From a virus: a DNA stretch of 64,000 bases. The notes under the pieces were generated by a model. That model worked only from the letters and a program-made list of their open reading frames with translations. It was not told where the DNA came from and searched no databases. Shown in pieces: positions 35,250-62,858 of this stretch. Every line of letters begins with the position of its first letter. The stretch's first letter is position 1. The stretch lies in IMG/VR virus record IMGVR_UViG_3300043773_000401, positions 32,001 to 96,000 of that record; one strand, 5' to 3'. The position numbers and the translations under genes were made by a program.

Positions 35250-37835
35250 CTATTGCTTATTTTGTGGATTAGAAGCTGTTGGATAACTATAATAATCAGG
35301 AAGTTCATATTCATCTTGTGGTTGATTTTTTGAACTTGCTGTTATAAGTTTAATAAGCTCTGCATTAGATAAATCAGAATAGTTTGGATCTGATCTATAT
35401 ATGTCATATAGCTCAAGTGGTGTTTTAGCAGAACCTGCACTTGGTTTCATTGTAGAACCTCTAGTAAATATAACATTACCTGTAACAGGATCTGTTTGAA
35501 AGTGAGGATACATTGCATTCATAGCTGCTGTCTTACCAGCATTAGTAAGACCTGTAATATAGTTTTGTCTTGCAGCAACTCTTAATGCTCTTGTAGTATC
35601 ATCATAGTTTTGATTAGTAGCTACAGTTTCATCATAGAAGTTTTTCATAATAGCAGCATTCTGTCTATTCTGCTCATTAGATATTTGTTTTCTAGTAAGC
35701 TCAAATGTATTAGCAATACCAACATTCTGTTTATTTACTTGATCCATAATGTTAGCTGCATTAGCTGCTGCCTTTCCTTGTACACTAGATACTCTAGATG
35801 ATAAAGCTTGTGGTCCTGCAAATGCTCCTAATGCTTGTGATGCTATAGCTGCTTGTTCAGCATTAGCTGCAAGAGCTCTTTCTGGAGATATAAAAGTAGG
35901 ACTAGGTAACTCATAGTTAACTGTCTGTAGTGTTGGGTAGTATCTGTTAACTGAATAGATATCACCTATTGATCCTAAAGTATTTGCTACATCTTGTGTC
36001 CACCATCTAGCTGGAGTAACACCAGTTTCAGTAGCATCTAATGGTTCAACATCATAAGGTTCTACTTTATCTTCTTCTTTTTCTTCTTCTAAATCTAATA
36101 GATTATAAGCTGCATCTTTAGGAAGAATAATTTCACCTGCTGTAGTATTTCCATAGATAGCATCTATTGGAGAAATTGGTCTTCCTTTTTCATCTGTTTG
36201 ATCTTTTTTACCTATAGGTGTAACATCAAAGTTAGCAAGAACATCTTTATACTTAGGATCATCAGCTAGCTCTTGTATAGATTTAAAAATTCCTTGGAAT
36301 GCTCTGATTTTAGTATCATCAAAAGCATCAAACCCTAGTTGAGACATTACTTCTTTATATCTTTTATTTCTTGGGTATGTATCCCAGGATGGATCACCAA
36401 CTACTTTAGTACCAGATGCATTAATAGCATAGTTCTGTTTTTGTCCTTCTAAGAATATCTCAGTTACTTCTTCAGGTGTAAGTTTTAAAAGCTCATCTTT
36501 TTGACCTTGACTTAGTCCACTTCTAAAACCTTTAATTTTTTCTTGAAACTGTTTATATAAATCTTGTTGTAAATTTTTATTGTTTCTGAAAAGATAATCT
36601 AACTGACCATACTGAGTTTGTAGTTTACCTAATCTAGGATCATCAATTTTAGTTGAAGGCATTACAACACCTTTAAGCAACTGATATCCTCCACCTGGTT
36701 TTTCTACAAATATTTTTTGGTCTTTAGTAGCTATCTTTTGAGTTTGTTGTAGTCTTGCTTGGAAGTCTATATCGGATTCTCCTTTTATTCTAGATACAAT
36801 AAGATCTTTACCTTCTCTTGGTCCATTCTTATATTTCTTAGTAACTTGTTCTCCATCTTGGTATTTTTTTAAACTACCTCCTTGTTTCATCATTGCTTGG
36901 CCTTGCATATAAGCTGGTTCTTCAAACATGACTTGTTCTTCCATAGGAGCTTCCATTGTCATAGGTTGCTGCAATGCTTCAGCCATTTGTTGAATAGTAA
37001 CCATCTGATCTTCTTCTGGTAGTTCTTGAAGCTGCATCATTATTTGTTTAGCATCTCCACCAGTAAGTTGTGCAAACTGTGATATAATATTACTAATAAC
37101 ATCATAGTCTAATTCTGTGTCTTCTTCCATTTCTGGTGATCCCCCATATTGCATAGGTGGTACCATTTCATATTGTGCTTCTGATTGAGCCATTGCATTT
37201 TGTTGTGGCATACCTTGTTGCATTTGTTGAGGTGCCATCTGTGGTAAAATAGACTCTGCTGTAGTACCTACTTTATCCATATAAGGTAAAGCTACTATTG
37301 GAACTCCTTGAGGAAATCCTTTTTTAGCTTCTTGTACTAATGCTAGCTTTCCTAACTTAATGTTATAGTTCTTAATCATTAGTTCAGCAGTTTTCTTAGC
37401 AAACTTATCAGAGTCTGGACTAGCAAGAATCTTTACATATTCATTAATGTCATATTTATTAGCAAGCTCTGCAGGTGTATAACCTTTAACTCCTTTCTTT
37501 TTAGTTTTACCAAATTGTTCTAAGAGTTCTTTTTCTTTGATCTTCATACTGTTGGTATCACTGTATATAAAAGAATCATTAGGAGCTTTTAAAGGTGTGC
37601 CTCCCTCATAATGTCTTTTACCTCCAATCTTATATGTTGCAGGAATACCACCAAACTTAGAAGGTATCATAATAATTTCACCTTTCTCAGCTTCTAGATC
37701 AGCTTCTTCTCTAGGTACACCAGGAAGACTTTTATTTACCTTAAGCTTTGGTTCAGATAATTTATCAGGAATAAACTGGGGAGCCATCTGATTATACCAG
37801 ATACCACCATTTTTAAATATGAATTTCTTACTCAT
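35250..37835 (-). CDS. putative virion cargo protein with xxGG motifs and Q/M-rich linker
   Basis: Probable start MSKKFIFKNGG at 37835; EAEKGE...GKRHYEGG domain; QYGG and MKQGG motifs; C-terminal Ala/Gln/Asn-rich coiled coil. Confidence 0.65.
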   Translation of the reverse strand: MSKKFIFKNGGIWYNQMAPQFIPDKLSEPKLKVNKSLPGVPREEADLEAEKGEIIMIPSKFGGIPATYKIGGKRHYEGGTPLKAPNDSFIYSDTNSMKIKEKELLEQFGKTKKKGVKGYTPAELANKYDINEYVKILASPDSDKFAKKTAELMIKNYNIKLGKLALVQEAKKGFPQGVPIVALPYMDKVGTTAESILPQMAPQQMQQGMPQQNAMAQSEAQYEMVPPMQYGGSPEMEEDTELDYDVISNIISQFAQLTGGDAKQIMMQLQELPEEDQMVTIQQMAEALQQPMTMEAPMEEQVMFEEPAYMQGQAMMKQGGSLKKYQDGEQVTKKYKNGPREGKDLIVSRIKGESDIDFQARLQQTQKIATKDQKIFVEKPGGGYQLLKGVVMPSTKIDDPRLGKLQTQYGQLDYLFRNNKNLQQDLYKQFQEKIKGFRSGLSQGQKDELLKLTPEEVTEIFLEGQKQNYAINASGTKVVGDPSWDTYPRNKRYKEVMSQLGFDAFDDTKIRAFQGIFKSIQELADDPKYKDVLANFDVTPIGKKDQTDEKGRPISPIDAIYGNTTAGEIILPKDAAYNLLDLEEEKEEDKVEPYDVEPLDATETGVTPARWWTQDVANTLGSIGDIYSVNRYYPTLQTVNYELPSPTFISPERALAANAEQAAIASQALGAFAGPQALSSRVSSVQGKAAANAANIMDQVNKQNVGIANTFELTRKQISNEQNRQNAAIMKNFYDETVATNQNYDDTTRALRVAARQNYITGLTNAGKTAAMNAMYPHFQTDPVTGNVIFTRGSTMKPSAGSAKTPLELYDIYRSDPNYSDLSNAELIKLITASSKNQPQDEYELPDYYSYPTASNPQNKQ

Positions 37836-40440
37836 ATGTATTACCTCCAATATTTTTGATTTTTCTTATAACAGGGCTAGTTAAGAATTGTGTCATACCA
37901 TTTACAAATACACCACCTTGTTGTGCATATGGTCCAGTATATACTAGTTCATTAGGTCTAAATGAATTCCAGTTAGTAGAATAATCTCCACGGTTAGTAT
38001 CATAGTTTTGCATAAACAAAGAAGTAGGGTCTTGCATCTTCTTTCTAAAGTCTTGCTTTCTTTTATTAGCTTCTAGATCTTTTCCTATACCTGTAAGCAT
38101 ATTAACACCCATCAATGATAGATCTGCTATAGATTGATTAGTAGGTCTTAGACCTTCTTTAATATCAGCTTCTACAGAATTATTTAATAGGTTTTTAAAT
38201 TTGAATGTTTTATTAAATCCAGATCCATCTGCATATTTAGGCATACCTCCATATCTTCTATAAGTCATATCATATAACTTAGTACCTGGTTGTCCTTCAC
38301 CTTGTCCAGTAGTATTATCCATAGTAGGAGCTGGAGTATTATAATTATTAGCAGCAGTATTTGTAGCTGTTGAAGGTGTTGTATTAGTATTAGTAAGATT
38401 ACTAGTAGTTGTATTAGATGTGTTAGTTGTATTGGCAGTATTACTTGTTGCTGTACCTGGACCAAAGTTTAATATCCCTTTGAATCTTTTAAGTGAAGGA
38501 GATCCCCAGAATATAGGATTTCTAGTTTTTAGTTCATTAACAACTATTTGATTTAAAGGACCAGCAAATCCTGTAAAACCACCAGGGAAATTACCTTTAA
38601 GTTTAACATTAGAATATGGTTGCCAGTTAATAGGTAGTAAATCAAATAAACCACCTGTAGGTCTTGGACTTGTTTGTACATTAGTTTTAGAACTTACATC
38701 TACCCAAGTTGTACCATCCCATCTTTTATATTTACCATCTATTACTCTTATATCTCCTTTTTCTAGTCCACTTGTTTTACCATCTGTCCCAGTATTAGCT
38801 TTACTATCTGTTCCACCAGAAGGTCCAGCAACATTAACACCTGTTGGAAGATTACTAGTAGTAGCTGATCCTGCATTAGAACTATAATATTTCTTAGCAT
38901 AATCTTTTGTTTCATTTACTCTATTTGTCCATTCAGCTAGTTTAGAAGGAGTAACACCTGAAGTATTAGTATAACTTCTAATTTTTTCTGCAGCAAAAGG
39001 ATCACCTAAAGCATCTCCCATTGCCATAACATCTTTACCATATTTTTGCCAAGCTGCATCTACAGCAGTAGGATCTAATTTTCCTGACTTATACATAGCA
39101 ACTTTTTCTGCAGGTGTTAATTTACCAGCAGCTACCATCATAGAAGCTCTAGGATCTTCACTATTAAAAGCAAAGTCAAAACCCATAGCTTGTTGGGATA
39201 GTGGAAGTTCATAAAGTCCATACTTATTATAGTACTTATCTATAGCATCTTTAATAGCTTCATCTCTTCCTCCTGTATATGGTGAATATGATTTTTCTGG
39301 ATCTTGTGTAAATCCATAATTGTCATAACCTAATCTAGTCTCACGATCTATTGTATTAGCAACAATATCATATGCTTTATTATACTCAGGTGTACCAGGT
39401 TGAACAGCTTTTCCTACTTGAGCTTGTTCTAATGCTTCATCTTCTTTTTCTAGCTCTTCTTGATTCTTTAAGTATTGACTAAATGGAGTAAACTGATCAG
39501 ATCTCATATTATCAAATCTACCACCAAAGAATGCTGATAACCCTTCTCTAAATCCTGGTTCTGTTTCAGAAGCTTCATAAGCATCTTGAAAAGATTCCCA
39601 GTTACTAAATGGATCAAAGTTAAGTTCATTAGTATTACCACCATCTGCCATCTTTTTCATTCCTCCATTCTTCATTAAGAAAGGATATGTTTCTTTAAGA
39701 TTAGCCATGGCAGCTGTACTTCTTAGATAATTGATAAAGTTAGTTGTCTTACCTAAATAACTATCTGGTCCTTCTGAGTATCCTGCCATACCACCATCTT
39801 GTGCCATTGGCATAGCCTCTTCTTGCATTTCTCCCATTTGTTGGGGTTGCATTTGTTGAGCTTGCATTTCTTGTTCCATCATCTGTTGATCCATAGGAGC
39901 TTCAGTTTGTGGTGAAGAAGATTGAGCTTCCATAATAGGTCTTACTTCTTCAATGATCTGCATTAAAGCTTGTTCTTGTTCTTCAGGACTAAGTTGCTGT
40001 AGTTGTGCTATTACATCTTCTACACTTGAGTTTATAGATTCAGCATATATAGCAAGTACTTGAGCTATCATATCTTGTTGACTCTGACCACCATCTTGTC
40101 TTTTTCTTAATCCTCCCCCACATTCAAAACATGGCTGACCACCTTTCATGAACATCATCATATTAGGAGCAGGTATACCATAGCTAAACATTTGAGCTGC
40201 AGTAGGAGCTGCATAATAAGGAGACCCCCCATTCTTCATGGTAACAGTACTAAACTGCATAGGAGCACCAAAGTTATAAAACTCTGCTTCTGTTCTAGCT
40301 TGGGGAAAAGCTGTAGTACCACCAAACTTCATCTGAAATTTTTCTGGGGTATCATACTCTCTATAAAATGCTGCTTCTCCTTCTGGGGTGTTTGGATACC
40401 CTGCCATGCTTAGGTAGTCTTCTTTTCTCATAGAATACAT
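37828..40440 (-). CDS. putative virion cargo protein with many xxGG motifs and a GH108-like muramidase domain
   Basis: Repeated KFGG/KNGG/MKGG/QDGG/ADGG/RYGG/QQGG; central RET...NYGFT...LP...FDFAFNS...WTNRV pattern; T/N-rich linker. Confidence 0.65.
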   Translation of the reverse strand: MYSMRKEDYLSMAGYPNTPEGEAAFYREYDTPEKFQMKFGGTTAFPQARTEAEFYNFGAPMQFSTVTMKNGGSPYYAAPTAAQMFSYGIPAPNMMMFMKGGQPCFECGGGLRKRQDGGQSQQDMIAQVLAIYAESINSSVEDVIAQLQQLSPEEQEQALMQIIEEVRPIMEAQSSSPQTEAPMDQQMMEQEMQAQQMQPQQMGEMQEEAMPMAQDGGMAGYSEGPDSYLGKTTNFINYLRSTAAMANLKETYPFLMKNGGMKKMADGGNTNELNFDPFSNWESFQDAYEASETEPGFREGLSAFFGGRFDNMRSDQFTPFSQYLKNQEELEKEDEALEQAQVGKAVQPGTPEYNKAYDIVANTIDRETRLGYDNYGFTQDPEKSYSPYTGGRDEAIKDAIDKYYNKYGLYELPLSQQAMGFDFAFNSEDPRASMMVAAGKLTPAEKVAMYKSGKLDPTAVDAAWQKYGKDVMAMGDALGDPFAAEKIRSYTNTSGVTPSKLAEWTNRVNETKDYAKKYYSSNAGSATTSNLPTGVNVAGPSGGTDSKANTGTDGKTSGLEKGDIRVIDGKYKRWDGTTWVDVSSKTNVQTSPRPTGGLFDLLPINWQPYSNVKLKGNFPGGFTGFAGPLNQIVVNELKTRNPIFWGSPSLKRFKGILNFGPGTATSNTANTTNTSNTTTSNLTNTNTTPSTATNTAANNYNTPAPTMDNTTGQGEGQPGTKLYDMTYRRYGGMPKYADGSGFNKTFKFKNLLNNSVEADIKEGLRPTNQSIADLSLMGVNMLTGIGKDLEANKRKQDFRKKMQDPTSLFMQNYDTNRGDYSTNWNSFRPNELVYTGPYAQQGGVFVNGMTQFLTSPVIRKIKNIGGNTYE

Positions 40441-40449
40441 ATTAATATA

Positions 40450-40481
40450 CTAATATACAAATATAATGTTAATTATTCAAA
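40450..40481 (-). promoter_or_regulatory. Bacteroidota-like promoter TTTG-N20-TATATTAG
   Basis: Minus-strand TTTG (40481-40478), 20-nt spacer, TATATTAG (40457-40450), 9 nt before ATG 40440. Confidence 0.6.
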
Positions 40482-43400
40482 TTATCTAGCCAGCCTCTCT
40501 TTTGTCCTCCATATTTATTCATTTGACCAGTAGTAAATCCTAAAGGCACATTAATAGCTTTTCCTGTATTTTGAAATGGAAGAATTATTGCAGGACGTTC
40601 ATTTACCCATCTATCACTATAACTTGGATCTCTTCCTATACTTTGTAAAAAATTAAAAAGTTTTGCTGAATATCTTCTTTCATTTCCTGCAGCATAATCA
40701 CTTAATCTAGATCTTTTTGAAATATCTAATCCTGTATCTGCAGGTTTAAATAATTTATTAATTTTTCTTGCTTGTTCAGGAGTAAGTTCTTTATCTCTAA
40801 AACTATGATTTATTTTCATTATATCTTCCCATTCCTTTTTTAAATTTGGATATATTTCATTTATATCATTAGGAGTTTTATTAGGATCTATTTTACCATA
40901 TTTATCATAAATAGCATCTATTCTTTTTAAATATTCTTTATTATTTTTTATAAGTTGATTGATTTCAGCATTTGTATAAAAATCTTTTTCTGTTAAAAGA
41001 GGTTCTTTAGTAGCTAGACTTTTTGCCTCATTTACTAGATTTTTTTTATTAGTTAGTTGTTCTTTTTTCCATTTCCTAGCATAGTCTTTTACATCTTTAA
41101 TAGCCTCATCGTAATATTTTCTTTGAGTAAAATTTTGATAATCTTCAGGATCTGCTTTGTATACAAGTCTTCCAGAAGCATCTCTATATTCTAACTTCTT
41201 AGGATTTACATATGTAGGTTTACCTTTACCTCTAGTAAATTGTGGTTGACCAGCAAATGAAGAAAGTATACCTTCAGCACCAGTTAATGCCATTTTAGTA
41301 TAATCTACTTCTCCAGTATTAGGATCCACAAATGGAGCCGATATATCTGTAGAAGGTAGATTAATAGACCCTTGATTCATTGGTCCATATCCTGATGTTC
41401 CTTGCTCTGTATAAAATAATTGAGGTAGTCTATTTCTAAATTCTTTAATAAACTTATTAGGTTCTTTACCAAAGAATGCTCCTTGATTTATTAATGCTCT
41501 AGGATCTGCTTTATCAGATATTTCTATAGCTGGTAAATCTATAGGTCCTATAGTAGGAACTTCTTCACCTACTTGTGCTTTAGGTAGATTATCTAACCAT
41601 CCTCCTTTTTTATACATTGTATTATTATTTAATTGATTATATCCTGCAGCACCTAATCCAGTTAAACCTATTGCTGGTATTAAAGCTGGAGCATTATTTA
41701 ACTGTTCTGTTAAGAATCTAAGATTAATAGGACTCTTTTTTATAAAACTACCTATTCTGTCTCCTTTAGTACTATTAAAATAATCTATTACCATATCTTT
41801 AGTAATACGATCTTCTAAGTTTTTAATAATGCCTTTATTCATCATATTCTGTCTTAACTCTCTTAAATGAGGTAATCTTTCAACATCTCCTTTCTCAAGG
41901 TGGTGCCAATAATCTAAAGATTCTGCTGCTCTTGTAAGTTCAGGTGTATTTGTCATTGTTCTAGATGAGCCTTCAATATTAGCTAATTGTTGTATAGCTT
42001 CAGGTTTAGCTTCTAATGTTTTTAAAGCTTCATCTATTTTAGTAGGTTTACTTAATAATGTTGGTCCTGTTGGTTCAGGATCATATAACCAATTATATAT
42101 ATTACGTTTAAATGGATTGGTAGTTTTTTTAGCTTCAATTTGTCTTTGTTTCCATTCAGCTAATTCATCTTGAAATTTTTTAATATCTTTCAAGTATTCA
42201 TTCATTCTATAATATTCTCTTTGTAAATGGTGACCTGTTTCATGTTCTAATGCAGTTCTAGGAGTTAAATCTAAACCTCGTTGTTTTTTTAAGTTATTTA
42301 ATTCTCTAAAGTCTATATTAACTGTAGCTGTTGGAGAAAAATACTTGGTCTTTTCACCTGATCTAAATGTTAAATTATAAGGTATCATTTTGTCAGGTGT
42401 AATACCAATATCTTCTAATCTTCTTCTACCTTCTGGTGTTTTCCAAAACTCTGCTGATTTATTAGAATATTCTTTAAGATCTTTAATCTCTTTTCTAAAT
42501 TGTAAAGGGGTTATAAGCTTATTATCTAAGTTATTCTTAAGCTTAGTAGTAAGTTCTTTAAAAAAGTTTTTTAACTCTTCAGAACTAAGATCTCTATATC
42601 GTAATGCATTAACAGCATTTGATAATGGTTTTTTAGTTAATGATCCTATTCCTCCTAACATAGGAGTTACCTCAGCCATATTAAGTGATCTTTCTACATC
42701 AGCTTCATCTAAAATAGGAGTAGCACCATATGCCCCAGCAACTAGGTTAAGGAAAGTTTTACCATACTTAGTAGGATTATTATAGATATCTCTAGCAGCA
42801 TTAATAGGTGATGATAATATTTCTGCCATGTATTGTCCAGAAGGATCTAGTTTAGGTCCTAGATCTATATCTGGTAAGTTTTGTCTAAAACCAGCTACTC
42901 TAGTTGCATCTTGTGCTCTATTAGCTTCAAGAGCTTCTTGTTTAGATAAACCTTTATTATTAAACTCATACATACTAGGTTTAGGCTTAGTAGCTTCTTT
43001 AAGAAATGTACCTAAATCTTTATTTTTACTATATTGAAATTTAGGTTTAACTTCACCTCTATCCTGATAAGTATCTAACCACCCACCTTTACCAAATCTA
43101 TAACTTACTCCTGTAGTTATATTGGGTTGATTATAATATGATCCTGCAGAAAAGTTTACATTACCTCTACCTTTATTAAAGGGTATATTAGCACTTATAC
43201 TAGGACTAATATATTGACTTAATTCAGGGTCAGATTCTATATTAAATCTATTAGCTAAGTCAAAATTTATATTACCAAAATCTACATTAGCTCCAAAGTC
43301 TCCTTCTATACCTGTATCTCCAGACCATGTTGGATAACCACCAATGTAACCATATGGACTAACTTGAATTCTTCCTTTTTGTGCTCTATCTAACCATCCT

Positions 43401-44650
43401 CCTGTTTTCTTTTTATTTATAAATTGCTTATAAGATTCTGATTGTTTTAGTATATCATATTCTTTAGGTGATAATGTTTGTGTTTTAGTATTTTTATTTG
43501 TAGGATCACCATAATATATTGTGTATGTATCACCTATTCCTTGAGTCCAATCTTTTGATATGTGATTTATAGGTTTAGGTTTTTGGTTCTTTACAGTAAT
43601 TATTTCTTTTTTTGGTTCTTCTTTTTTTACAGAATTTTTATTTTTCTGATATTCTTCCCAAGCAGCTTGTGATTTTTTACCCCATATACCATCTACTTCA
43701 CCAATATTAAATCCAGCATTTACTAATTCTTCTTGTTTAGCTCTTATTTCTGGATTTCTATACACTACAGGTTGTACTGGTTTTTTATATACAGGAACAA
43801 ATGCTGTTCCTGCTCCATTATATCCAGAAGTATATTGATCTATTCTTGTAGGTTTAATTTTATTTTTATCAATACCATACAAAGGAAGTAAATCAGATAT
43901 TAATGGGTCATTTATATTAAATCTTCTTTCTACACTTTCACTTCCTCTAGTAGCTAAATCTTTTTTATATTTATTATATAAACTTAAACTATCATTATAA
44001 TCCTGTAGTCTAGGATCATTAGGGTTATCTACATAGATAGTTCCTCTTTGAGCTTTAGGTATATTATCTAGCCACCCTCCATTTTTCTTTATACCTAGTT
44101 CTTTTTTCCAAGATCCTTTATCTGCAAAATTTATAGCAGCTTCTTCATCTTCTCCAAAGTTATATACCTCACCTCTTTTTTGAGCTTCCTTATATATCTT
44201 CATCCAGTCTTTTTCATCAGACATATTAACCCATGAGTTATCTGGATTTTGAAATATACTAGGAAATGCTACCCATCCTGTAGGTCCGTATTCTCTCATC
44301 ATGTAATGAGTAGAAGGTTCAGTTTGTCCTTTTAATGTTATTGATCCAACTCTAGGTTTTACATTATATCCTTTCTGAGCCATAGGTATCTCATATACTT
44401 TGTTACCTGGATAGAGATAGTCTTGTTCTGGATACATCATCTGTGAGTTACCTAAATCATCCATTCCAAATACTGGATAAGGAACTCCTTTCATAGTTAT
44501 ACTATTACTATTAATTAGTGTAGGTTCTCCGGGGAATTCCCATTGACCATAATCAGATTCTATAAAACCTGATGTAGTTCTTTTAACATAATTAGGACCT
44601 CCTTTAAGACCTTCAGTAGCTTTCTTCTGATAGTATAACTTCTTCTTCAT
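40469..44650 (-). CDS. modular cargo polyprotein with GGWLD-delimited cassettes (peptidoglycan-binding, beta-strand-rich, zincin and unknown modules)
   Basis: Five GWLD linkers; QEELVNAGFNIGEVDGIWGKKSQAAW (PG_binding_1-like); HETGH at 42230-42244. Confidence 0.75.
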   Translation of the reverse strand: MKKKLYYQKKATEGLKGGPNYVKRTTSGFIESDYGQWEFPGEPTLINSNSITMKGVPYPVFGMDDLGNSQMMYPEQDYLYPGNKVYEIPMAQKGYNVKPRVGSITLKGQTEPSTHYMMREYGPTGWVAFPSIFQNPDNSWVNMSDEKDWMKIYKEAQKRGEVYNFGEDEEAAINFADKGSWKKELGIKKNGGWLDNIPKAQRGTIYVDNPNDPRLQDYNDSLSLYNKYKKDLATRGSESVERRFNINDPLISDLLPLYGIDKNKIKPTRIDQYTSGYNGAGTAFVPVYKKPVQPVVYRNPEIRAKQEELVNAGFNIGEVDGIWGKKSQAAWEEYQKNKNSVKKEEPKKEIITVKNQKPKPINHISKDWTQGIGDTYTIYYGDPTNKNTKTQTLSPKEYDILKQSESYKQFINKKKTGGWLDRAQKGRIQVSPYGYIGGYPTWSGDTGIEGDFGANVDFGNINFDLANRFNIESDPELSQYISPSISANIPFNKGRGNVNFSAGSYYNQPNITTGVSYRFGKGGWLDTYQDRGEVKPKFQYSKNKDLGTFLKEATKPKPSMYEFNNKGLSKQEALEANRAQDATRVAGFRQNLPDIDLGPKLDPSGQYMAEILSSPINAARDIYNNPTKYGKTFLNLVAGAYGATPILDEADVERSLNMAEVTPMLGGIGSLTKKPLSNAVNALRYRDLSSEELKNFFKELTTKLKNNLDNKLITPLQFRKEIKDLKEYSNKSAEFWKTPEGRRRLEDIGITPDKMIPYNLTFRSGEKTKYFSPTATVNIDFRELNNLKKQRGLDLTPRTALEHETGHHLQREYYRMNEYLKDIKKFQDELAEWKQRQIEAKKTTNPFKRNIYNWLYDPEPTGPTLLSKPTKIDEALKTLEAKPEAIQQLANIEGSSRTMTNTPELTRAAESLDYWHHLEKGDVERLPHLRELRQNMMNKGIIKNLEDRITKDMVIDYFNSTKGDRIGSFIKKSPINLRFLTEQLNNAPALIPAIGLTGLGAAGYNQLNNNTMYKKGGWLDNLPKAQVGEEVPTIGPIDLPAIEISDKADPRALINQGAFFGKEPNKFIKEFRNRLPQLFYTEQGTSGYGPMNQGSINLPSTDISAPFVDPNTGEVDYTKMALTGAEGILSSFAGQPQFTRGKGKPTYVNPKKLEYRDASGRLVYKADPEDYQNFTQRKYYDEAIKDVKDYARKWKKEQLTNKKNLVNEAKSLATKEPLLTEKDFYTNAEINQLIKNNKEYLKRIDAIYDKYGKIDPNKTPNDINEIYPNLKKEWEDIMKINHSFRDKELTPEQARKINKLFKPADTGLDISKRSRLSDYAAGNERRYSAKLFNFLQSIGRDPSYSDRWVNERPAIILPFQNTGKAINVPLGFTTGQMNKYGGQKRGWLDNLNN
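40484..44080 (-). repeat. dispersed in-frame (G)GWLD linker repeats, five copies
   Basis: + strand ATCTARCCAYCCWCC at 44066-44080, 43388-43402, 43073-43087 and 41591-41605, with a partial copy at 40484-40495. Confidence 0.85.
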
Positions 44651-52293: not shown

Positions 52294-52300
52294 AGATATA

Positions 52301-52311
52301 CTAATTTACAA
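52301..52311 (-). promoter_or_regulatory. -7-type element TTGTAAATTAG
   Basis: Same motif as other virion-module intergenic sites; 7 nt before ATG 52293 and just downstream of a terminator. Confidence 0.5.
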
Positions 52312-52357
52312 ATTTTTTTCAAAGAATAAAAATAATTCTTTTACTAGTAACTACCAA

Positions 52358-52392
52358 ATAAAAAGACCCAGGGATTAGCCTGGGCCTCTTTT
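52358..52392 (-). terminator. intrinsic terminator
   Basis: Minus strand GGCCCAGG-CTAATC-CCTGGGTC followed by TTTTTATTT. Confidence 0.8.
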
Positions 52393-52429
52393 GTCAGTCA
52401 GGGAAACCAACAAACCATGACTTATTATT

Positions 52430-53617: not shown

Positions 53618-53619
53618 AT

Positions 53620-54165: not shown

Positions 54166-54167
54166 AA

Positions 54168-55091: not shown

Positions 55092-55097
55092 ACCTTT

Positions 55098-55129
55098 TTA
55101 ATATACAAAAATTATTTAACTAAATCAAA
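55098..55129 (-). promoter_or_regulatory. Bacteroidota-like promoter TTTG-N20-TATATTAA
   Basis: TTTG (55129-55126), 20-nt spacer, TATATTAA (55105-55098), 6 nt before ATG 55091. Confidence 0.6.
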
Positions 55130-55130
55130 T

Positions 55131-55580
55131 TCATATTTCACCATAAGATGCAAATGTTGTTACTAAAGTAGCTGGTTCACAAAGTAAAGGTGTTGGTGTA
55201 GGATATACACATACAGGTTCTGCCTCTGTAGATACTGTAACAGGAACACATAGTGTTGGATCAAATAACATTGATAAATCAGATAGCTGTTTCTTAATCC
55301 ATATCTTATCAAAGTTTACTGGACAAGAAGCTTCTATACCATATCTTAATTGTTTTACTTGTTCATAGTATGCATTACCAAACTTTACATTAGCTTCTAT
55401 ATCACATCTAGATCTTGTAATTCTATAAAACTCTTTACTATACTTAGGTATAGATCTAATAGGTGGTGGAGCTGGAACAGGTTCTGGTTCTACACAACAC
55501 TCACATAGGTCTATTAACCAACCATCAGCTTGTGGTGGAGGACATGTACATTCTTCTATTAACCAGCCTATAAAATTCAT
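55131..55580 (-). CDS. Cys/Pro-rich hypothetical structural protein
   Basis: 149 aa; duplicated GWLI(E/D)xC motif; RYGIEASC. Confidence 0.6.
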   Translation of the reverse strand: MNFIGWLIEECTCPPPQADGWLIDLCECCVEPEPVPAPPPIRSIPKYSKEFYRITRSRCDIEANVKFGNAYYEQVKQLRYGIEASCPVNFDKIWIKKQLSDLSMLFDPTLCVPVTVSTEAEPVCVYPTPTPLLCEPATLVTTFASYGEI

Positions 55581-55584
55581 AATA

Positions 55585-56907: not shown

Positions 56908-57092
56908 TACTTTTTATAATTTATTGAATTAATTGTAGCTGCTAAATGAGTATTACTAGGTTTTGCTGTTGGTAAGTTTGCTGCTGTTCTATTATAAGAT
57001 GCAACACAATTACTACATACTATTTTACCATCTGCTGCTGTTCTCTTTTGGCATCCACAACTTAATTGAGATTTACAATTTACACATGTCAT
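56907..57092 (-). CDS. small Cys-rich (Zn-finger-like) protein
   Basis: CVNC...SCGCQ...CSNC in 61 aa; AAAAACCAAA leader; TAATG coupling to the next gene. Confidence 0.7.
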   Translation of the reverse strand: MTCVNCKSQLSCGCQKRTAADGKIVCSNCVASYNRTAANLPTAKPSNTHLAATINSINYKK

Positions 57093-57114
57093 ATTCTTTG
57101 GTTTTTATTTGTTA

Positions 57115-57675
57115 CTAACATAAGTCATTGCATCCACATCCACAAGCTAGTTTCTTAAGTTTTTTGTAAACATAGTTGTACATATCCATACCTTTAGTAG
57201 GATGATGACAATATTCTACTTCTACTTTAGCAGCTTGTAATTGTGTTTGCAGTAATTGAAGCTCTCTAACCTTATCTTTAATAGGTTTTTGAGGTTCACA
57301 TGCAGCTAAGTCCATACAGCAAAGTATCTGATTAATCAGATTTAAAGCATTAGTAATCCTAAGATGATTATATTCTACATACACATATTCATTAGGAGAT
57401 ACAGAATATCTTACTACATATACACCATCTGGTAGATCTTGAATAATCTGACCACAGTTATATATCTGTAATCCCATATCACATGCTGTAATATTCTCAG
57501 TAAAGTTCTCAGTTAGATCTGGTACTTCATAAGATTGATAGAATCCAGGAGGTGTTATCTGTAATTTAGGACATTCTACTGGAACATCTTCACTGTATAT
57601 ACTAGTGTCTATAACTCTTATAATACACTTATTTAAAGTATCAGGAATTTCTAAGCTTAATGTATGCTTTGCCAT
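57115..57675 (-). CDS. putative structural protein (Ig-like plus helical, Cys-rich)
   Basis: LQITPPGF, LPDGVYVVRYSVSPN, C-terminal CGCGC. Confidence 0.6.
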   Translation of the reverse strand: MAKHTLSLEIPDTLNKCIIRVIDTSIYSEDVPVECPKLQITPPGFYQSYEVPDLTENFTENITACDMGLQIYNCGQIIQDLPDGVYVVRYSVSPNEYVYVEYNHLRITNALNLINQILCCMDLAACEPQKPIKDKVRELQLLQTQLQAAKVEVEYCHHPTKGMDMYNYVYKKLKKLACGCGCNDLC

Positions 57676-57679
57676 AGTA

Positions 57680-57690
57680 CTAATTTACAT
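57680..57690 (-). promoter_or_regulatory. -7-type element ATGTAAATTAG
   Basis: 4 nt before ATG 57675, directly downstream of a terminator. Confidence 0.45.
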
Positions 57691-57700
57691 ATAATAATTG

Positions 57701-57742
57701 AAAAAGAAAAAGGGAGAGGAGAGATTTTACTCCCACTCTCCC
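57701..57742 (-). terminator. intrinsic terminator
   Basis: Minus strand GGGAGAGTGGGAG-TAAAAT-CTCTCCTCTCCC followed by TTTTTCTTTTT. Confidence 0.8.
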
Positions 57743-57771
57743 AATTTTCTATAAGTTATACTAGTGTGAGA

Positions 57772-59160
57772 TTATGCTAATACTCCAGGAATGATTGCTA
57801 CACCACGGCAGTCAAAACATCCTACATACTCAACACCTTTGCAAGGACCATTACATGCAGCTAACCAAGCATCCATGAATGTTTCAAATGCTGTAGCTCC
57901 AGGAGCAATGTTTAATCCACCAGCAAAGTTAGATAAGTTAGGAACAACAATCTCTAACAAGTACTGATCATTATCAAATACTCCAGTTGGGTTATTGAAA
58001 CGAGGTACATTGTGCTGTACATAGAAACGGCTATAGAAAGCATTTCTGTTAGGTATAGCTAAGTTAAAGTCATAACCTTGAGTTACTTCACGGATACGAA
58101 GATCAGAGTTAGTAGCAAAGTAGTTCTGCTGATAAGACTCAGATAAAATTAAACTCTTAAGAGCTGTATCACCAAATCCAGTACCTTGACGTGGAGCACA
58201 TTCTTCTACTACACAGATACCTGTAAATAAACAAGGATCTCCAGTGTAATCTACTTCAGAAGGAAGAATCTTAACTAATTCTTTTTCATAGAAGTCATTA
58301 GGATAGAATGTACAGTTTCCAAATACTGTATCTACATAAGCTCCAGTAAATGTCATACCAGCACATTCTCCTTCGAATGGACCAGCAGGAGATACGTAAA
58401 GATCCCAAGCTAAAGTACCAGCAGCAACTGCAGCATTATAAGTATCAATTGTATAAGATGGACCTACAGGAGCACCAGTTGTATCATAAATACGGATAGC
58501 AATGAATGGAGCAATCAACGGACTGTTGAAGAATTGCTTAGCCCATCCAATGTAAACTAATGTAGGATCTACTGCTACAGGAGCTGTATCATCAACACAA
58601 CATCCAGTGTAGTAATCTGCAGTATAGTATGAGTTACGAGTTAAGAAACGTAATGCTGGAGATCCTTTGATGTCAAGACGTAAATAGTAAGTCTCATCAC
58701 ACAAGAAATCTTTGCAACATCCTGTATTCTCAACAGTGTAAGGTGTAGAACCTACGTGCACAATATTCTGAATAGGAGCACAAGGGTCAACACGGTAAGC
58801 ACGTGATACATACTTAGCATTGATTACTTTAGATTTAGTAGTCTCTTTATAACCACCAGCAAAAGGTCCAATCTTGTCATTGTGAAAGATAGGAGAGCTA
58901 GCAATGATAATAGGACAACAATCTTCTGGAGTAGATAAAGGTGCTAATGAAGTGTAAGTTTCTGAATTAAATACACCATAAACTCCATAAGGATTTGGAT
59001 CAGGTACAGTGTTGTAAGTACCATTAGATAATTCTACGGTAGCAACACCTGAAGACAACAACATACCAGTATTATCAATACCAGCAACTGTTGGAGATGC
59101 AACTTGAGCAGGGTGCCCACCCAAGAAGACCTTGTTAAACGCATGATTAAAATAAGCCAT
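57772..59160 (-). CDS. abundant structural protein (capsid auxiliary/decoration-like)
   Basis: 462 aa with own promoter and terminator; CGT/TAC/TTC codons suggest high expression; HNVPRFNNPTGVFDND motif. Confidence 0.55.
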   Translation of the reverse strand: MAYFNHAFNKVFLGGHPAQVASPTVAGIDNTGMLLSSGVATVELSNGTYNTVPDPNPYGVYGVFNSETYTSLAPLSTPEDCCPIIIASSPIFHNDKIGPFAGGYKETTKSKVINAKYVSRAYRVDPCAPIQNIVHVGSTPYTVENTGCCKDFLCDETYYLRLDIKGSPALRFLTRNSYYTADYYTGCCVDDTAPVAVDPTLVYIGWAKQFFNSPLIAPFIAIRIYDTTGAPVGPSYTIDTYNAAVAAGTLAWDLYVSPAGPFEGECAGMTFTGAYVDTVFGNCTFYPNDFYEKELVKILPSEVDYTGDPCLFTGICVVEECAPRQGTGFGDTALKSLILSESYQQNYFATNSDLRIREVTQGYDFNLAIPNRNAFYSRFYVQHNVPRFNNPTGVFDNDQYLLEIVVPNLSNFAGGLNIAPGATAFETFMDAWLAACNGPCKGVEYVGCFDCRGVAIIPGVLA

Positions 59161-59198
59161 TGTTTTTTGTTTTAAAAGTTATACAAATAAATAATAAT

Positions 59199-59230
59199 AT
59201 AATATAAGTAATAGTTTACTAATATCCAAA
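59199..59230 (-). promoter_or_regulatory. Bacteroidota-like promoter TTTG-N20-TATATTAT
   Basis: TTTG (59230-59227), 20-nt spacer, TATATTAT (59206-59199), upstream of ATG 59160. Confidence 0.6.
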
Positions 59231-59231
59231 T

Positions 59232-59825
59232 TTACCCCATCATTTCATCATCTAGCAGACGGAGAGCTATCTTGTCTGTACCAAATGCTTCTAGACGGTC
59301 CATCCAGTTTTGCATCTTGCCCATCTCTTCTACTTGTTCTTTAAGATAACCTAATGCTAGTTCATACATAATATGATCACCTCTCATTAAAGCTTTAGAA
59401 GCTAGATCTTTAATTTGAGAACTAATCTCAATCTCATGATCATATGACTTCTGAATAATCTCAGGTAATCCACCTGGATAGTTTTGTTCTGGTTGATCAA
59501 GTACAGGAGTTAATGGTTGTAAACCAAATGATAAGACATACTTACGTGCTATATCAGCATGACCCATTTCTTCTGCAGAATATCCATTCCATTGTTTAGC
59601 AGCACCTAGATAACCTTTGTCATCTAACCACATTGCCATAGACTTATATATTCTAGCAGAATATTCTTCCTGTTGTATACGGTAGTTAAGATAATCTAAA
59701 CCTTCTTGTGAGATTAAAGGATTGTCTGTCTTAAGTGGAGGAGCTCCTTTTAAACCTGAAACACCAACTACTTTTGGTGCTGAGCTTGCATCTCCTGTTC
59801 TTTTAAGCATTCTATTGTTTTCCAT
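59232..59825 (-). CDS. ftn: ferritin (non-heme, FtnA-like)
   Basis: Ferroxidase-centre pattern QEEYSARIYKSMAMW, EEMGHA, HEIEIS, EQVEE and terminal LLD. Confidence 0.88.
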   Translation of the reverse strand: MENNRMLKRTGDASSAPKVVGVSGLKGAPPLKTDNPLISQEGLDYLNYRIQQEEYSARIYKSMAMWLDDKGYLGAAKQWNGYSAEEMGHADIARKYVLSFGLQPLTPVLDQPEQNYPGGLPEIIQKSYDHEIEISSQIKDLASKALMRGDHIMYELALGYLKEQVEEMGKMQNWMDRLEAFGTDKIALRLLDDEMMG

Positions 59826-59836
59826 TTATATAAAAA

Positions 59837-60541
59837 TTAATTGTTCTGTTCTCCTGATTGAGCATTAATCTGTACTTGAGCAATAGATTCTATATCACCT
59901 GCTATAATAGCACAAGCCTCATCAATAAGAACTTCAGTAATGTCATCCTTGAATTCACATTCTACATTAGTAGTACTAATTAGACCTGTGTATGGATCAA
60001 CACAACCTTCAATCTGTATATTGATAGGCTTTCTATAGAAGTATAAATCTATATTTTCTAGATCAAACTCATTGTTTGTATATATCCTAAGTTTATTATT
60101 AATAAGGGTCATAAAAGTTTCTCCCCATTCAAAACTAGGTTTCTTAAGATAATCTCTAAGTAAGTTAGGTACGTTAGCTTCTTCTGCTAAATATACTACC
60201 ATTTCTTTGTTAGTACAGCATTCTGAAAAAGCTGATAGATGAACTCTCTTAAACTCCATATAGTTTTCTGGAAGATCCAGAGTAGTTTCATAATAACCAT
60301 CAAACTTACTTAGATCTAGGGTAGACTTATTTAACAATATCTGTAAGTCATCTACTCTTCTCTTAGATTGTTCATCTCCTTGTTTAAGAATATTAGTACC
60401 AACAAGCTGTCTACGGCACCATTGAATCATGCCTTTATTGAATGCTTCTATTATTTGCCAACATTCAATATTGTCATAATCCTGGCTATCTAACTTGTTT
60501 AGCCTTTGCTTAACCTTTATTTGGAGTGTTGAATTTAACAT
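59837..60541 (-). CDS. head-tail ring/adaptor protein (crAss-like)
   Basis: RLNKLDSQ...EQSKRRVDDLQIL...LPENY...KPSFEW...YFYRKP...CEF pattern. Confidence 0.65.
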   Translation of the reverse strand: MLNSTLQIKVKQRLNKLDSQDYDNIECWQIIEAFNKGMIQWCRRQLVGTNILKQGDEQSKRRVDDLQILLNKSTLDLSKFDGYYETTLDLPENYMEFKRVHLSAFSECCTNKEMVVYLAEEANVPNLLRDYLKKPSFEWGETFMTLINNKLRIYTNNEFDLENIDLYFYRKPINIQIEGCVDPYTGLISTTNVECEFKDDITEVLIDEACAIIAGDIESIAQVQINAQSGEQNN

Positions 60542-60945
60542 TATCCTTTCTTGCTACGCATTTTACCTAGAGTTTTAGCTAAGTTAGCTTGTCTCTTAGT
60601 TGTTGTACTTGCTTTAGATCCTGGTTTAGTTACCTTAGCAGCATAAGCAGCAGTAGACATACCAGCAGCTTTAGCTTTAGCAGAGAATGCACCTGGGTTT
60701 TTAATAGCACCCTTGATCCAATTTTTCTTAGCTCCACCAGCTTTAAATACTCCACGTCCTTTAAGGATGTCTGCTTGAGTTACTTTACCATCACCTGTAA
60801 GATCTGGAAACTTTGATCCTCCCATCTTATAGTTCTTACTTTCCATCTTCTGATAATCAGCATTAAGTTTATTTACCTTACTCTTTTTATCTTGAGGACG
60901 GGTAACATACCCTGGATTCATGTTTAATTTAGTAGTCTTTTTCAT
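60541..60945 (-). CDS. small basic modular protein (EF-hand/dockerin-like loop plus KNWIKGAIK module)
   Basis: YKMGG-[FPDLTGDGKVTQADIL]-FKAGG-[KNWIKGAIKNPGA...RQANLAKTL]. Confidence 0.7.
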   Translation of the reverse strand: MKKTTKLNMNPGYVTRPQDKKSKVNKLNADYQKMESKNYKMGGSKFPDLTGDGKVTQADILKGRGVFKAGGAKKNWIKGAIKNPGAFSAKAKAAGMSTAAYAAKVTKPGSKASTTTKRQANLAKTLGKMRSKKG

Positions 60946-60955
60946 ATATAAATAA

Positions 60956-61315
60956 TTAGCAGTTCCATTTTCTTAATGACTTATTAATCCTAGAGTTAGG
61001 ATCATTTGCAGTCTTAGATGAAGTAAGCTTCTTCTTCATACCAGACATTCTAGCACAAAAAGACTTTCTTCTATTAGCAGCTTCACTACCTTTCTTTAAC
61101 TTAGAAGGTTCTGTAGTAACAGCTGTCTTAAGTTTAGATCCAGGGTTTTCTCTACGGTAAGAAGCAACACCTTTAGCATTAAGACCACCAGAAGGATTCT
61201 TACCTTCTTTTCTCTGCCATGCAGGAGTAGATCCTCCCTTCTTCATCTGAGGAGTCTTACCAGCTTTCTTCATTGAGATAGCTATTGCTGCTTGTTGTTT
61301 TGCATTCTTTGTCAT
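60956..61315 (-). CDS. small basic protein (DUF6321-like)
   Basis: AWQRKEGKNPSGGLN...RRKSFCARM...LRKWNC (family recalled, not searched); QQAAIAIS module and MKKGG linker in front. Confidence 0.7.
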   Translation of the reverse strand: MTKNAKQQAAIAISMKKAGKTPQMKKGGSTPAWQRKEGKNPSGGLNAKGVASYRRENPGSKLKTAVTTEPSKLKKGSEAANRRKSFCARMSGMKKKLTSSKTANDPNSRINKSLRKWNC

Positions 61316-61324
61316 AGTAATATT

Positions 61325-61459
61325 TTATCTACCTTGACCTCTATATCTTTTAGGTTTCTGTTCCTTAGGACCAAACTTCTTTTTAAGCTTGCCTGTAGTT
61401 TTAACACCAAAGGTTACTTTACCTCTTTCTACTTTACCTTTACCACCTGCTTTTGCCAT
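61325..61459 (-). CDS. 44-aa basic protein ending in YRGQGR (not in the ORF track)
   Basis: Translated by hand: MAKAGGKGKVERGKVTFGVKTTGKLKKKFGPKEQKPKRYRGQGR*; fills the gap between its neighbours. Confidence 0.8.
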   Translation of the reverse strand: MAKAGGKGKVERGKVTFGVKTTGKLKKKFGPKEQKPKRYRGQGR

Positions 61460-61461
61460 AA

Positions 61462-61731
61462 CTATCTATATTTACTAGCTTTATTAGCTATTGATTTAGG
61501 TTGTTTTACAAATTGTTTACCCTTCCTATTACCTTCAGCTTTAACCTTATTAGTAGCAGCTTTTTCTCCTGCTGACATAGCAGACCAGGCAGCTTCAGGA
61601 AGATACCTTTTAGTACCCTTAGATTTTACTTCTTTACTCAAGCCTTTCTTTTTATTAGCATGAGTACCAGAAGTCATCCATTTCTGAGCTGTCCAGTCTT
61701 TTAAACTCTTCTGTGATTTAGCTAGTGCCAT
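61462..61731 (-). CDS. small basic protein (DUF5872-like, C-terminal half)
   Basis: KSQKSLKDWTAQKW...RYLPEAAW...KAATNKVK...GKQFVKQP (family recalled). Confidence 0.7.
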   Translation of the reverse strand: MALAKSQKSLKDWTAQKWMTSGTHANKKKGLSKEVKSKGTKRYLPEAAWSAMSAGEKAATNKVKAEGNRKGKQFVKQPKSIANKASKYR

Positions 61732-61749
61732 TCTTTTTCTAATTTAAAC

Positions 61750-62205
61750 TTATTCTCCATAATAACCAAACATCTTTAAATAATCAATTGCATTCTGTAA
61801 TATAATAGGACTATCTTCAAACATACCTAATGCCCTATTACACTTCTTACACAACAGACCTCTAAATTCATCTGTCTTATGATTATGATCAATTGCGCTT
61901 TCACTTATTAATATATGTTTATTACATATGGCACAACATTCTTCTTGCCTTTCATAAACATCTATTAATTCTTCAGGTGTTATTCCTCTTCTTTGACATC
62001 TTTTTGCTAGAGTCCACGAGTCTTTCTCTCTATATTCTCTAACTTTATCTGGATTATTTTCAGTCCAGTTTCTATGTTCATTATATAAACATTTATTACA
62101 TTTACTTTTTAATAAATGTTTTTGTGATCCACCTCTACTTCTAAACTCAGAAGTATCTTTAGATTTTTTACAACTTGAACATATTTTAGTTTCTATATCC
62201 ACCAC
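61750..62205 (-). CDS. endonuclease VII-family (His-Me finger) nuclease, probable free-standing homing endonuclease
   Basis: N-terminal CSSC...CNKC zinc finger; CAIC...IDHNHKT...RGLLCKKCNRALG; GTG start overlapping the upstream gene. Confidence 0.88.
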   Translation of the reverse strand: MVDIETKICSSCKKSKDTSEFRSRGGSQKHLLKSKCNKCLYNEHRNWTENNPDKVREYREKDSWTLAKRCQRRGITPEELIDVYERQEECCAICNKHILISESAIDHNHKTDEFRGLLCKKCNRALGMFEDSPIILQNAIDYLKMFGYYGE

Positions 62206-62551
62206 CTTTACTTTTGTACTCTTTAGCTAACAACTGACTTTTTCTAGCTGACCATTCTCCAGGATCTCCACCTTTAGTACCAGCCTTTATCTTGTTGAAT
62301 AATGATTTACGCATACCAGGCTTGGTATAATTACCTGCCTGGTTTACCTTAGACTTAGTAGAACCACCTTTTTTCATAGTCTCAGCTATTCTGATTTTAC
62401 GGTCTTGAACTTTAGCTGCTCTACCTAATAGTCTATTAGCTTTTTGTTCTCTACCTTCATCAACAGCTTTATTGCCTTTATAAACTAGACGTTCTTCTCT
62501 TTTCTGAAGTCTTGCTAGTTTTCTTGCTTTATCACCAGGTGTTTTCATCAT
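62186..62551 (-). CDS. small basic protein (helical module plus DUF5872-like N-terminal half)
   Basis: MKKGG linker, then NYTKPGMRK...GTKGGDPGEWSARKSQLLAKEYKSKGGGY. Confidence 0.7.
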   Translation of the reverse strand: MMKTPGDKARKLARLQKREERLVYKGNKAVDEGREQKANRLLGRAAKVQDRKIRIAETMKKGGSTKSKVNQAGNYTKPGMRKSLFNKIKAGTKGGDPGEWSARKSQLLAKEYKSKGGGYRN

Positions 62552-62552
62552 A

Positions 62553-62858
62553 TTATTTCTTTTTACCCATTTTCTTCATGCCACCCTTCTTCATCATACC
62601 ACCATATTTTAATGGAGATACAGTAGCTTTAGGATTAACATTAGTCATAACTCCACTAGATCCAGGAACTTTTTGTACAGTAGCTCCTTTATTAACTCCT
62701 ACCATAACTCCTCTTGAGCTAGGTACTTTAGTTACTTGGAAGTCACTTTGTGGATTAGGGTTATTCATAGCACCAGTCTTAGCCTTAGGTAAAGACTTCA
62801 TACCACCTTTCTTCATCATTGAGGCAGTAGATGCTTTTTTGGTCATAGATTTTTTCAT
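62553..62858 (-). CDS. small Lys/Met/Gly-rich protein with MMKKGG repeats
   Basis: MMKKGGMK twice, LKYGG, and a tandem VxKVPxSxGVMxxVN repeat. Confidence 0.7.
   Translation of the reverse strand: MKKSMTKKASTASMMKKGGMKSLPKAKTGAMNNPNPQSDFQVTKVPSSRGVMVGVNKGATVQKVPGSSGVMTNVNPKATVSPLKYGGMMKKGGMKKMGKKK

Follow-up and report, generated by a model that had tools for sequence, protein, structure and literature searches.

A Gly-Gly peptide at module boundaries of late proteins in a crAss-like phage: a candidate portable tag for internal virion proteins

We analyzed a window of 64,000 nucleotides (bases 32001-96000 of the 114.8-kb viral record IMGVR_UViG_3300043773_000401, a crAss-like phage) in which a short peptide, hydrophobic-[K/Q/R]-x-G-G, often followed by ..[L/I]PKA[Q/K]xG or K[Y/M][Q/A]DG, recurs in two separate groups of genes, three large cargo-like genes and an array of tiny basic genes. 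The peptide is enriched in these proteins and specific to them, it is positioned in linkers, it is portable over module families and phage lineages, and it takes the same position as the T4-type signals of other phages. Judged from sequence, the GG peptide is best read as holding, in other lineages, the place that the address-and-cut signals have in T4, and the modules that carry it as internal head proteins. The explanation that we favor, with a probability we would place slightly short of even, is that of a portable tag for internal or ejected virion proteins (a 'GG dialect'). The searchable literature had nothing on the motif strings or on DUF6321, the Pfam family of one of the modules.

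Enrichment and position of the motif

An initial annotation of the window described an xxGG motif shared by the cargo-like and the tiny basic genes, and we found all the peptides it listed on the minus strand (the window coordinates below refer to this strand). The pattern as first drawn was real and enriched, though too loose, with RQDGG, AQDGG, MADGG and AQQGG being its weak members. The standing of the motif had been made dependent on an enrichment above that predicted by the K, G and M composition, and the enrichment survived both composition and shuffle controls. In the proteome set of 119 open reading frames (ORFs), the pattern [MFYK]K.GG was seen 16 times compared to 2.3 +/- 1.4 expected from within-protein shuffles. 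In the seven motif proteins, M, F, Y or W at position -3 together with K, Q or R at position -2 was observed in 14 of the 42 GG sites, compared to 1.04 expected from composition (binomial p 9e-13); the same context was present in 2 of the 106 GG sites of the other 112 ORFs (Fisher p 3e-7 against the motif proteins). Shuffling in blocks of 10, 20 and 40 residues gave 0.8-0.9 +/- 0.9-1.0 matches (maximum 5 in 1000). Among individual proteins, the shuffle p values were 0.0005 for the 870-aa protein (6 matches), 0.002 for the 1393-aa protein and 0.003 for the 101-aa protein.

The companion element, [LI]PKA[QK]xG or K[YM][QA]DG, was confined in a proteome scan to the 866-, 870-, 1393- and 101-aa proteins. 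The shuffle-controlled scan found the motif absent from the 1075-, 2243-, 3777- and 2584-aa proteins as well as from the ring, fibre and capsid genes; the 1787-aa muzzle-like protein had two weak matches (shuffle p 0.18). The earlier observation that the motif is not repeated in the tail, ring and fibre genes was thus borne out.

A composition artefact is ruled out by the within-protein shuffles, the block shuffles and the GG-context test. A DNA-level repeat or recombination linker is ruled out as well, since the Gly and Lys codons differ between motif copies; the variable codons indicate that selection acts on the peptide and not on a DNA repeat. The motif could also have been a by-product of a Shine-Dalgarno-like GGAGG sequence; this candidate was rejected because GGAGG encodes only 9 of 17 copies and the positions misfit the downstream start codons.

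In the 866-aa cargo-like protein (35250..37850), the copies FKNGG (37803-37817), MQYGG (37140-37154) and MKQGG followed by SLKKYQDG (36876-36890) are in linkers. One more copy, YKIGG (37620-37634, residues 73-77), is inside a conserved folded domain. The ORF as listed begins at TTG (37850), and the likely start is the ATG at 37835. The closest database relative (99% identical over the 140-residue N-terminal query) starts at the ATG five codons downstream (MSKKF..), a start that gives 861 aa.

The 870-aa cargo-like protein (37828..40440), for which no Pfam or PHROG family match was found, has the copies MKFGG (40318-40332), MKNGG (40225-40239), FMKGG (40138-40152), RQDGG (40087-40101), AQDGG (39790-39804), a second MKNGG (39661-39675), MADGG (39637-39651), RRYGG followed by MPKYADG (38245-38259) and AQQGG (37912-37926). 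The 866- and 870-aa proteins have in common a Gln/Met/Glu-rich low-complexity region (36900-37300 and 39800-40100, respectively) with a similar helical piece, ..QLQ.L.PEEQ.., which suggests that the two are paralogues or have exchanged linkers.

The 1393-aa protein (40469..44650) has a beads-on-a-string layout with a peptidoglycan-binding-like stretch (residues 299-338) and an HETGH zincin motif, the latter with no match to a Pfam family. Its copies KKNGG (44075-44089), KKTGG (43397-43411), FGKGG (43082-43096) and YKKGG (41600-41614) are followed by WLD, while NKYGG (40505-40519) is located 11 residues from the C-terminus. No relatives of the 870- and 1393-aa proteins were detected by an IMG/VR pattern scan or by tblastn against cultured phages, and a nucleotide search with the motif region gave nothing relevant.

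In the array of tiny basic genes, the 134-aa protein (60541..60945) consists of a leader, YKMGG (60817-60831), an EF-hand-like module, FKAGG (60733-60747) and a phrog_20603 module. The middle module (FPDLTGDGKVT.AD.LKGRGV; region 60733-60831) resembles an EF-hand or dockerin calcium loop in its residue pattern, and elsewhere it is joined via [FY]KKGG to at least five different downstream modules (loci L018, L022, L029, L062 and L071). The 119-aa protein (60956..61315) has a helical leader, MKKGG (61232-61246) and a DUF6321 module (PF19846; 77.5 bits at residues 38-117 compared to a cut-off of 28.5). The 121-aa protein (62186..62551) has a helical N-terminal part, MKKGG (62363-62377) and a phrog_17747 module. 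In the 101-aa protein (62553..62858), MKKGG followed by MKSLPKAKTG (62802-62816) opens a series that continues with LKYGG (62598-62612) and with MKKGG and a Lys-rich tail (62580-62594). The initial annotation counted five tiny basic genes with the motif. The fifth proved to be a putative, previously unlisted 44-aa basic ORF (61325..61459) that starts with MAKAGG. The remaining array member, an 89-aa basic protein with a phrog_14910 module (61462..61731), is bare and has no GG. In other loci the module of this 89-aa protein does carry the motif, as MRRYYRTGG in L005 and behind ..MASGG and ..MMANGG in the polyproteins of L003 and L002, respectively. The Lys+Arg content of the tagged proteins is 20-37%.

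With respect to the position in the protein, we observed that profile matches in the Pfam and PHROG scans begin at the motif or right after it. For example, the phrog_17747 match in the 121-aa protein starts from residue 63, the last G of the motif (59-63); the phrog_20603 match in the 134-aa protein starts from residue 75 with the motif at 67-71; and the DUF6321 match in the 119-aa protein begins a few residues past MKKGG. In AlphaFold models built with alignments, the first ~30 residues of the 866-aa protein, including FKNGG, had a predicted local distance difference test score (pLDDT) of 42-55, compared to 82-94 in the domain that follows. In the 119-aa protein, pLDDT was below 50 at residues 22-26, at the motif between the leader helix and the module (80-90). 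Tags are found in three positions: within N-terminal leaders, at the junctions of fused modules, and directly ahead of short, Lys-rich tails at the C-terminus. The motif is thus predicted to lie at module boundaries, in flexible or disordered stretches, as the initial annotation had it when placing the motif in linkers, with YKIGG of the 866-aa protein (a copy not on its list) as the exception.

Relatives of the cargo proteins and of the small basic modules

The N-terminal domain of the 866-aa protein had 75 homologues, with lengths from 584 to 1378 aa. Among them, [MFY]..GG was present 235 times compared to 53 expected, and P[KQ]A[QKR].G 38 times compared to 0.8 expected. The copies fall in linkers that otherwise do not align. 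The usual N-terminus of the family is basic-V-K-I..LPKAQ.G. At the third position ahead of the first G, a hydrophobic residue is preferred (M x4.6, F x3.2), so that the pattern reads hydrophobic-x-x-G-G; conservation is N-terminal to GG, and the residue that follows is variable. Acidic variants, FMEDGG, FLEDGG and QQKDGG, occur among the cargo proteins as well. In three crAss-like relatives found via the muzzle protein (G001, G005 and G006), the cargo genes have the same motifs, including copies at the extreme C-termini.

A weaker, Lys-poor form of the motif, e.g. SAYGG, AFGGWL, FAYGG and AMFGG, is present in crAss001 gp45 and in phi14:2 g069 and g070, proteins that were detected in virions. 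Two pieces of gp45 are reported as resolved in the crAss001 virion, residues 214-245 on the rings and 425-552 on the portal (PMC10172136), and both are bracketed by consecutive GG sites. Homology between the 866-aa protein and the portal-bound domain of gp45 is weakly supported. In a VIA-align search over 48,161 chains, 7qog_M was at rank 1 with a Z of only 2.6 (root-mean-square deviation 4.1 over 66 residues), a score tied with those of unrelated chains; hhalign gave a sensible alignment at a probability of 7.8%. With gp45 as query, BLASTP gave no significant match to any of the three cargo-like proteins, Foldseek found no match in the PDB for the N-terminal domain of the 866-aa protein, and nothing was found in a PDB sequence search.

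The small basic modules are spread much more widely. A search with the 119-aa protein gave at least 544 viral loci, of which 80 with 1126 ORFs were kept. In these 80 DUF6321 loci, [MFYK]K.GG was present 132 times compared to 27 +/- 5 expected, mostly in tandem tiny basic genes, and tails like MKKGGKVKKKK were common. Between phage lineages, module identity reaches ~90%. Some of the loci come from podoviruses whose capsid gene is of the HK97 type and whose adaptor is of the SU10 type; in these, the array adjoins the capsid or portal gene. Arrays within head modules were found in three lineages; the array follows the major capsid gene here and the capsid or portal gene in the SU10-adaptor podoviruses.

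At least five module families (DUF6321, the modules of the 89- and 121-aa proteins and two modules of the 134-aa protein) exist in three forms each: bare, starting from Met; behind a leader (MR.YYK.GG, ..FAKGG or ..MASGG); and fused to another module via ..GG. In these families GG is positioned 0-6 residues ahead of the start of the bare form. In DUF6321 specifically, GG is 2-6 residues ahead of a conserved AW, and the bare genes begin 3-4 residues ahead of AW. The leaders that precede the DUF6321 module are variable in the alignment. Some standalone genes consist of a single module behind the 9-residue leader MR.YYK.GG. The polyproteins L002:5498-6643 (381 aa) and L003:680-2803 (707 aa) chain modules that are separate tiny genes here, and some polyprotein junctions retain a Met after GG (..MASGG-MAKSQ..), as in a recent gene fusion or an internal start.

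In other contigs the same boundary is occupied by a different kind of signal: DUF6321 is found behind MLTFQEFITE, MITLKEFIVE or MKKFNEYINE, or behind the junctions VDLEE, LDE or IDE. Targeting by the T4 capsid targeting sequence (CTS) depends on residues 4 and 7, and its processing by gp21 under the L/I-x-E rule on residues 8 and 10 (PMC9026906). The N-termini and junctions of these contigs fit both the CTS and the gp21 rule. Peptidase_S77 (E ~5e-34) was present in G007, G008 and G009, contigs of ~105-157 kb with a DUF6321 ORF that has a CTS-like N-terminus and an L-x-E junction; the other L-x-E contigs that were tested, all incomplete (14-78%), had no S77 match. Neighboring ORFs had 15.5 GG motifs per 10,000 aa in loci with GG junctions compared to 1.7 in loci with L-x-E junctions. 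By this measure, the two dialects exclude each other.

DUF6321 was also present in 527 cultured phage records, mainly of T4-like cyanophages and Pelagibacter phages. For example, a 427-aa protein of Synechococcus phage S-B43, annotated as T4-like structural, strings together several modules with [LIV]-x-E junctions, and the S-SCSM1 homologue is labelled 'virion protein'. In Pelagibacter phage HTVC033P (L096), a seven-gene array (gp36-gp42) of the same basic modules, all bare, adjoins an amidase gene.

Besides the modules, a single protein is common to the lineages of this phage, L026 and HTVC033P. This protein of ~212 aa (phrog_3704, labelled 'ferredoxin', no Pfam match) is encoded outside the window at G000:C1:104600-105238 (L091:8701-9339, minus strand), and its homologues are in or next to small basic arrays in L026 (6346-7020) and in HTVC033P (gp43). 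The positions conserved in it, of Cys, His and QPNNR, are suggestive of an enzyme; the ESM Atlas was uninformative for this protein.

Genome setting of the motif-bearing genes

The genome is AT-rich (GC 32%). The late region on the minus strand starts with the genes of the large terminase, the portal, a 404-aa protein, the Crassvirus-type major capsid protein (Pfam Crass_capsid 1.5e-29; the gene is just right of the window) and a 338-aa protein. The tiny basic gene array comes next, with an endonuclease VII gene inside it, and then the head, ring and fibre genes. These are followed by the 1787-aa muzzle-like protein (phrog_37948, 5e-55), the 1393-, 870-, 866- and 1075-aa proteins and the giant proteins of 2243, 3777 and 2584 aa.

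The gene order is the same in crAss001 and phi14:2, in which the cargo proteins encoded past the muzzle gene have been proven to be virion components (PMC10172136). The name 'cargo-like' for the genes of the window is justified by this synteny. C1/gp45-like cargo of Crassvirales is recognized by a location between the muzzle gene and the genes of the virion RNA polymerase; the cargo genes here have this location, as does gp45, the C1 protein of crAss001 (PMC10172136).

Several other genes of the region deserve mention. The 2584-aa giant protein has a GHKL-type ATPase domain (HATPase_c_3, 5.5e-10, residues 116-225) and the 2243-aa one has a PD-(D/E)XK nuclease-like stretch (residues 1583-1739, 2.7e-5); the giant genes with ATPase and nuclease domains are at 6116-13870 and 25203-31934 of the window. 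Midway through the head/structural module, two genes downstream from the array of basic genes, there is a gene of a ferritin-like protein (59232-59825; Pfam Ferritin, 5.9e-21), which is unusual for a virion module. The endonuclease VII gene (61750..62205; Pfam 8e-20) has no motif and is not part of the feature; it overlaps the gene of the 121-aa protein by 20 nt and may be a mobile insertion. The array itself looks like an accessory island and is absent from crAss001 and phi14:2.

Address, cleavage site and other explanations

If the GG peptide is a tag, the modules it marks would belong to proteins carried in the virion and ejected together with the DNA. The tag would be recognized in head assembly, and the module would thereby be taken into, or held in, the procapsid or the tail lumen. 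Its action would then resemble that of the CTS on the internal proteins of T4 and that of the short segments by which crAss001 gp45 docks. We infer that the tagged proteins are packaged and that a component of head assembly reads the tag.

Among the closest known systems is the T4 CTS, found on internal proteins IPI-III and Alt and cut by gp21 at L/I-x-E. There, as here, short portable peptides are on small basic proteins, in N-terminal or junctional positions, and at one and the same boundary of DUF6321 the signal is a T4-type CTS in some contigs and a GG tag in others. The T4 signal ends in I/L-x-E, whereas the tag ends in G-G: all leaders of the window end in G-G and none fits the CTS pattern (aromatics at positions 4 and 7, I/L-x-E at 8-10). 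Unlike the CTS, the tag is often multi-copy and is also found at C-termini. Adenovirus protease cuts (M/I/L)-x-G-G-x after the second Gly, and pS273R of African swine fever virus (ASFV) cuts likewise after G-G. As in adenovirus and ASFV maturation, a hydrophobic residue and then G-G are found here in very basic, DNA-associated internal proteins or polyproteins. However, the hydrophobic residue is one position further from GG than in the adenovirus consensus, no clan-CE protease (C5, C48) was detected, and the virus is a tailed phage. Bacteriocin double-glycine leaders, cut by C39 peptidase domains, end in G-G as well and are an analogy; these export leaders have a spaced hydrophobic pattern and exceed in length those found here, of which the short ones have 9 residues. 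In gp45, hydrophobic-x-x-GG sites bracket each portal- or ring-docking segment; Lys is rare there, unlike in the tag. Polyvalent proteins (PMC5512222) are similar in being multi-module, virion-delivered and equipped with an embedded HExxH domain, for which self-processing was proposed; no linker motif was described for them.

The initial annotation offered two functions for the motif, a docking signal for loading into the procapsid or a site cut by a maturation protease. Comparison with the T4-type signals at the same boundary lends support to the idea of a portable address or processing mark. As for the cut, no maturation protease was found. Peptidase_S77, the gp21 type, had no match at E<=1 in the five GG-dialect genomes searched, G000 (96% complete), G001, G006, G012 and G013, two of which are 96-99% complete; Peptidase_C48 and C5 had no match at E<=1 in these five genomes either, though remote homologues could be missed. 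None of five more contigs, most of them fragments, had S77, and no protease family was detected in the head/structural modules by Pfam and PHROG scans. The resolved gp45 segment 425-552 opens with A-F-G-G-W-L and spans G427-G428-W429; being resolved from residue 425, this GG site is intact in the solved virion. The crAss001 atlas (PMC10172136) has no mention of cleavage or discussion of the motif. Given that the tag reading is right, cleavage after GG is a possibility that we consider a little less probable than its absence.

The strongest competing explanation is that of a pure processing site with no targeting role, cut after GG by an unrecognized protease, either of the phage (such as the HETGH zincin of the 1393-aa protein) or of the host. 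Such cleavage would release free modules from leaders, polyproteins and basic tails, and the predicted mature N-termini would match the starts of the bare forms. Internal GG junctions are indeed positionally equal to the internal L/I-x-E junctions of T4-like polyproteins that follow the gp21 rule; the conservation N-terminal of GG with a variable next residue, together with the disorder of the sites in AlphaFold models, points in the same direction. Processing by zincins has already been proposed for polyvalent and crAss-like virion proteins (PMC5512222; bioRxiv 10.1101/2020.03.07.982082). Against it are the failed searches for S77, C48, C5 and head-module proteases and the intact G427-G428-W429 of gp45. 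The SU10-adaptor podovirus loci that we examined share with this phage just the small basic modules, plus one phrog_3704-like protein (L026); therefore, the cargo zincin is not a general enzyme of the motif. Lineages with the tag have just the small modules and one protein of ~215 aa in common. Moreover, tandem copies are only 6-8 residues apart (MKNGGMKKMADGG, LKYGGMMKKGG), and cutting at each of them would give uselessly small peptides. On balance we regard pure processing as unlikely.

Binding of DNA or of a conserved host target, with no loading into the virion, would be a further step down in probability and seems to us distinctly unlikely. Here Lys-rich GG turns would act like the contacts of histone tails or of SPKK/AT-hook motifs. 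The high Lys+Arg content of the tagged proteins, the common tails such as MKKGGKVKKKK and the AT-rich genome agree with such a role, and module identity of up to ~90% across lineages suggests a universal target. However, neither the conserved aromatic residue or Met three positions before GG nor the acidic variants FMEDGG, FLEDGG and QQKDGG would be expected for DNA contact. The motif's strict location at module boundaries, where acidic L-x-E takes its place in T4-like phages, argues for a role at the junction and not for binding.

The least probable explanation, a passive flexible linker or gene-fusion scar in which nothing recognizes GG, could appeal to the frequency of Gly-rich linkers, to fusions that keep a downstream Met right after GG and to the AlphaFold disorder at the sites, but it is at odds with standalone single-module genes whose 9-residue leaders have nothing to link, with the strong position-specific preferences ahead of GG, with the absence of the motif from linkers of this phage's other large multidomain proteins, and with the codon variation, which places selection on the peptide.

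The portable-tag reading has difficulties of its own. No experiment was found on any GG-tagged protein. Bare modules coexist with GG tags in the same genomes, and the HTVC033P array is wholly bare. The giant RNA-polymerase-associated proteins, which would be packaged by synteny with crAss001 gp47/49/50, do not have the tag, so that it is not the sole route into the virion and no universal loading code. A common receptor is hard to name since the capsid, portal and scaffold sequences of the lineages that share the tag are unrelated. The extreme conservation and basicity of the modules would fit a DNA or host target unrelated to packaging as well. Finally, the virion and structural annotations in cyanophages are database labels, not traceable to primary data; 'GC0119' was not in the searched supplements of the cyanophage proteomics paper, and the 'structural protein' label could not be traced to data.

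A bolder version of the tag reading, which we consider improbable to nearly the same degree as pure processing or slightly more so, is that Crassvirales and several aquatic podovirus lineages use a GG head-maturation code, in which the peptide is both an address and a site cut by an unrecognized protease family. If true, such a code would parallel T4 gp21 with its L-x-E rule and the GG proteases of adenovirus and ASFV, with an independent origin in tailed phages. A flanking tag would then identify any domain as injected cargo. The tag would predict phage effectors in metagenomes, and by means of it foreign proteins could be loaded into crAss-like virions.

Crassvirales dominate among the phages of the human gut, are also common in marine waters, and select and load a large protein cargo. 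A common tag would give a testable rule for which proteins are injected, and a route to the partner, receptor or protease that reads it. It would also let the tiny basic phage ORFs that stand unannotated in their thousands (DUF6321 with its companions) be read as internal head proteins. That different lineages mark the same modules either by T4 signals or by the GG tag suggests that portable 'address dialects' are general in phage head assembly and not peculiar to T4.

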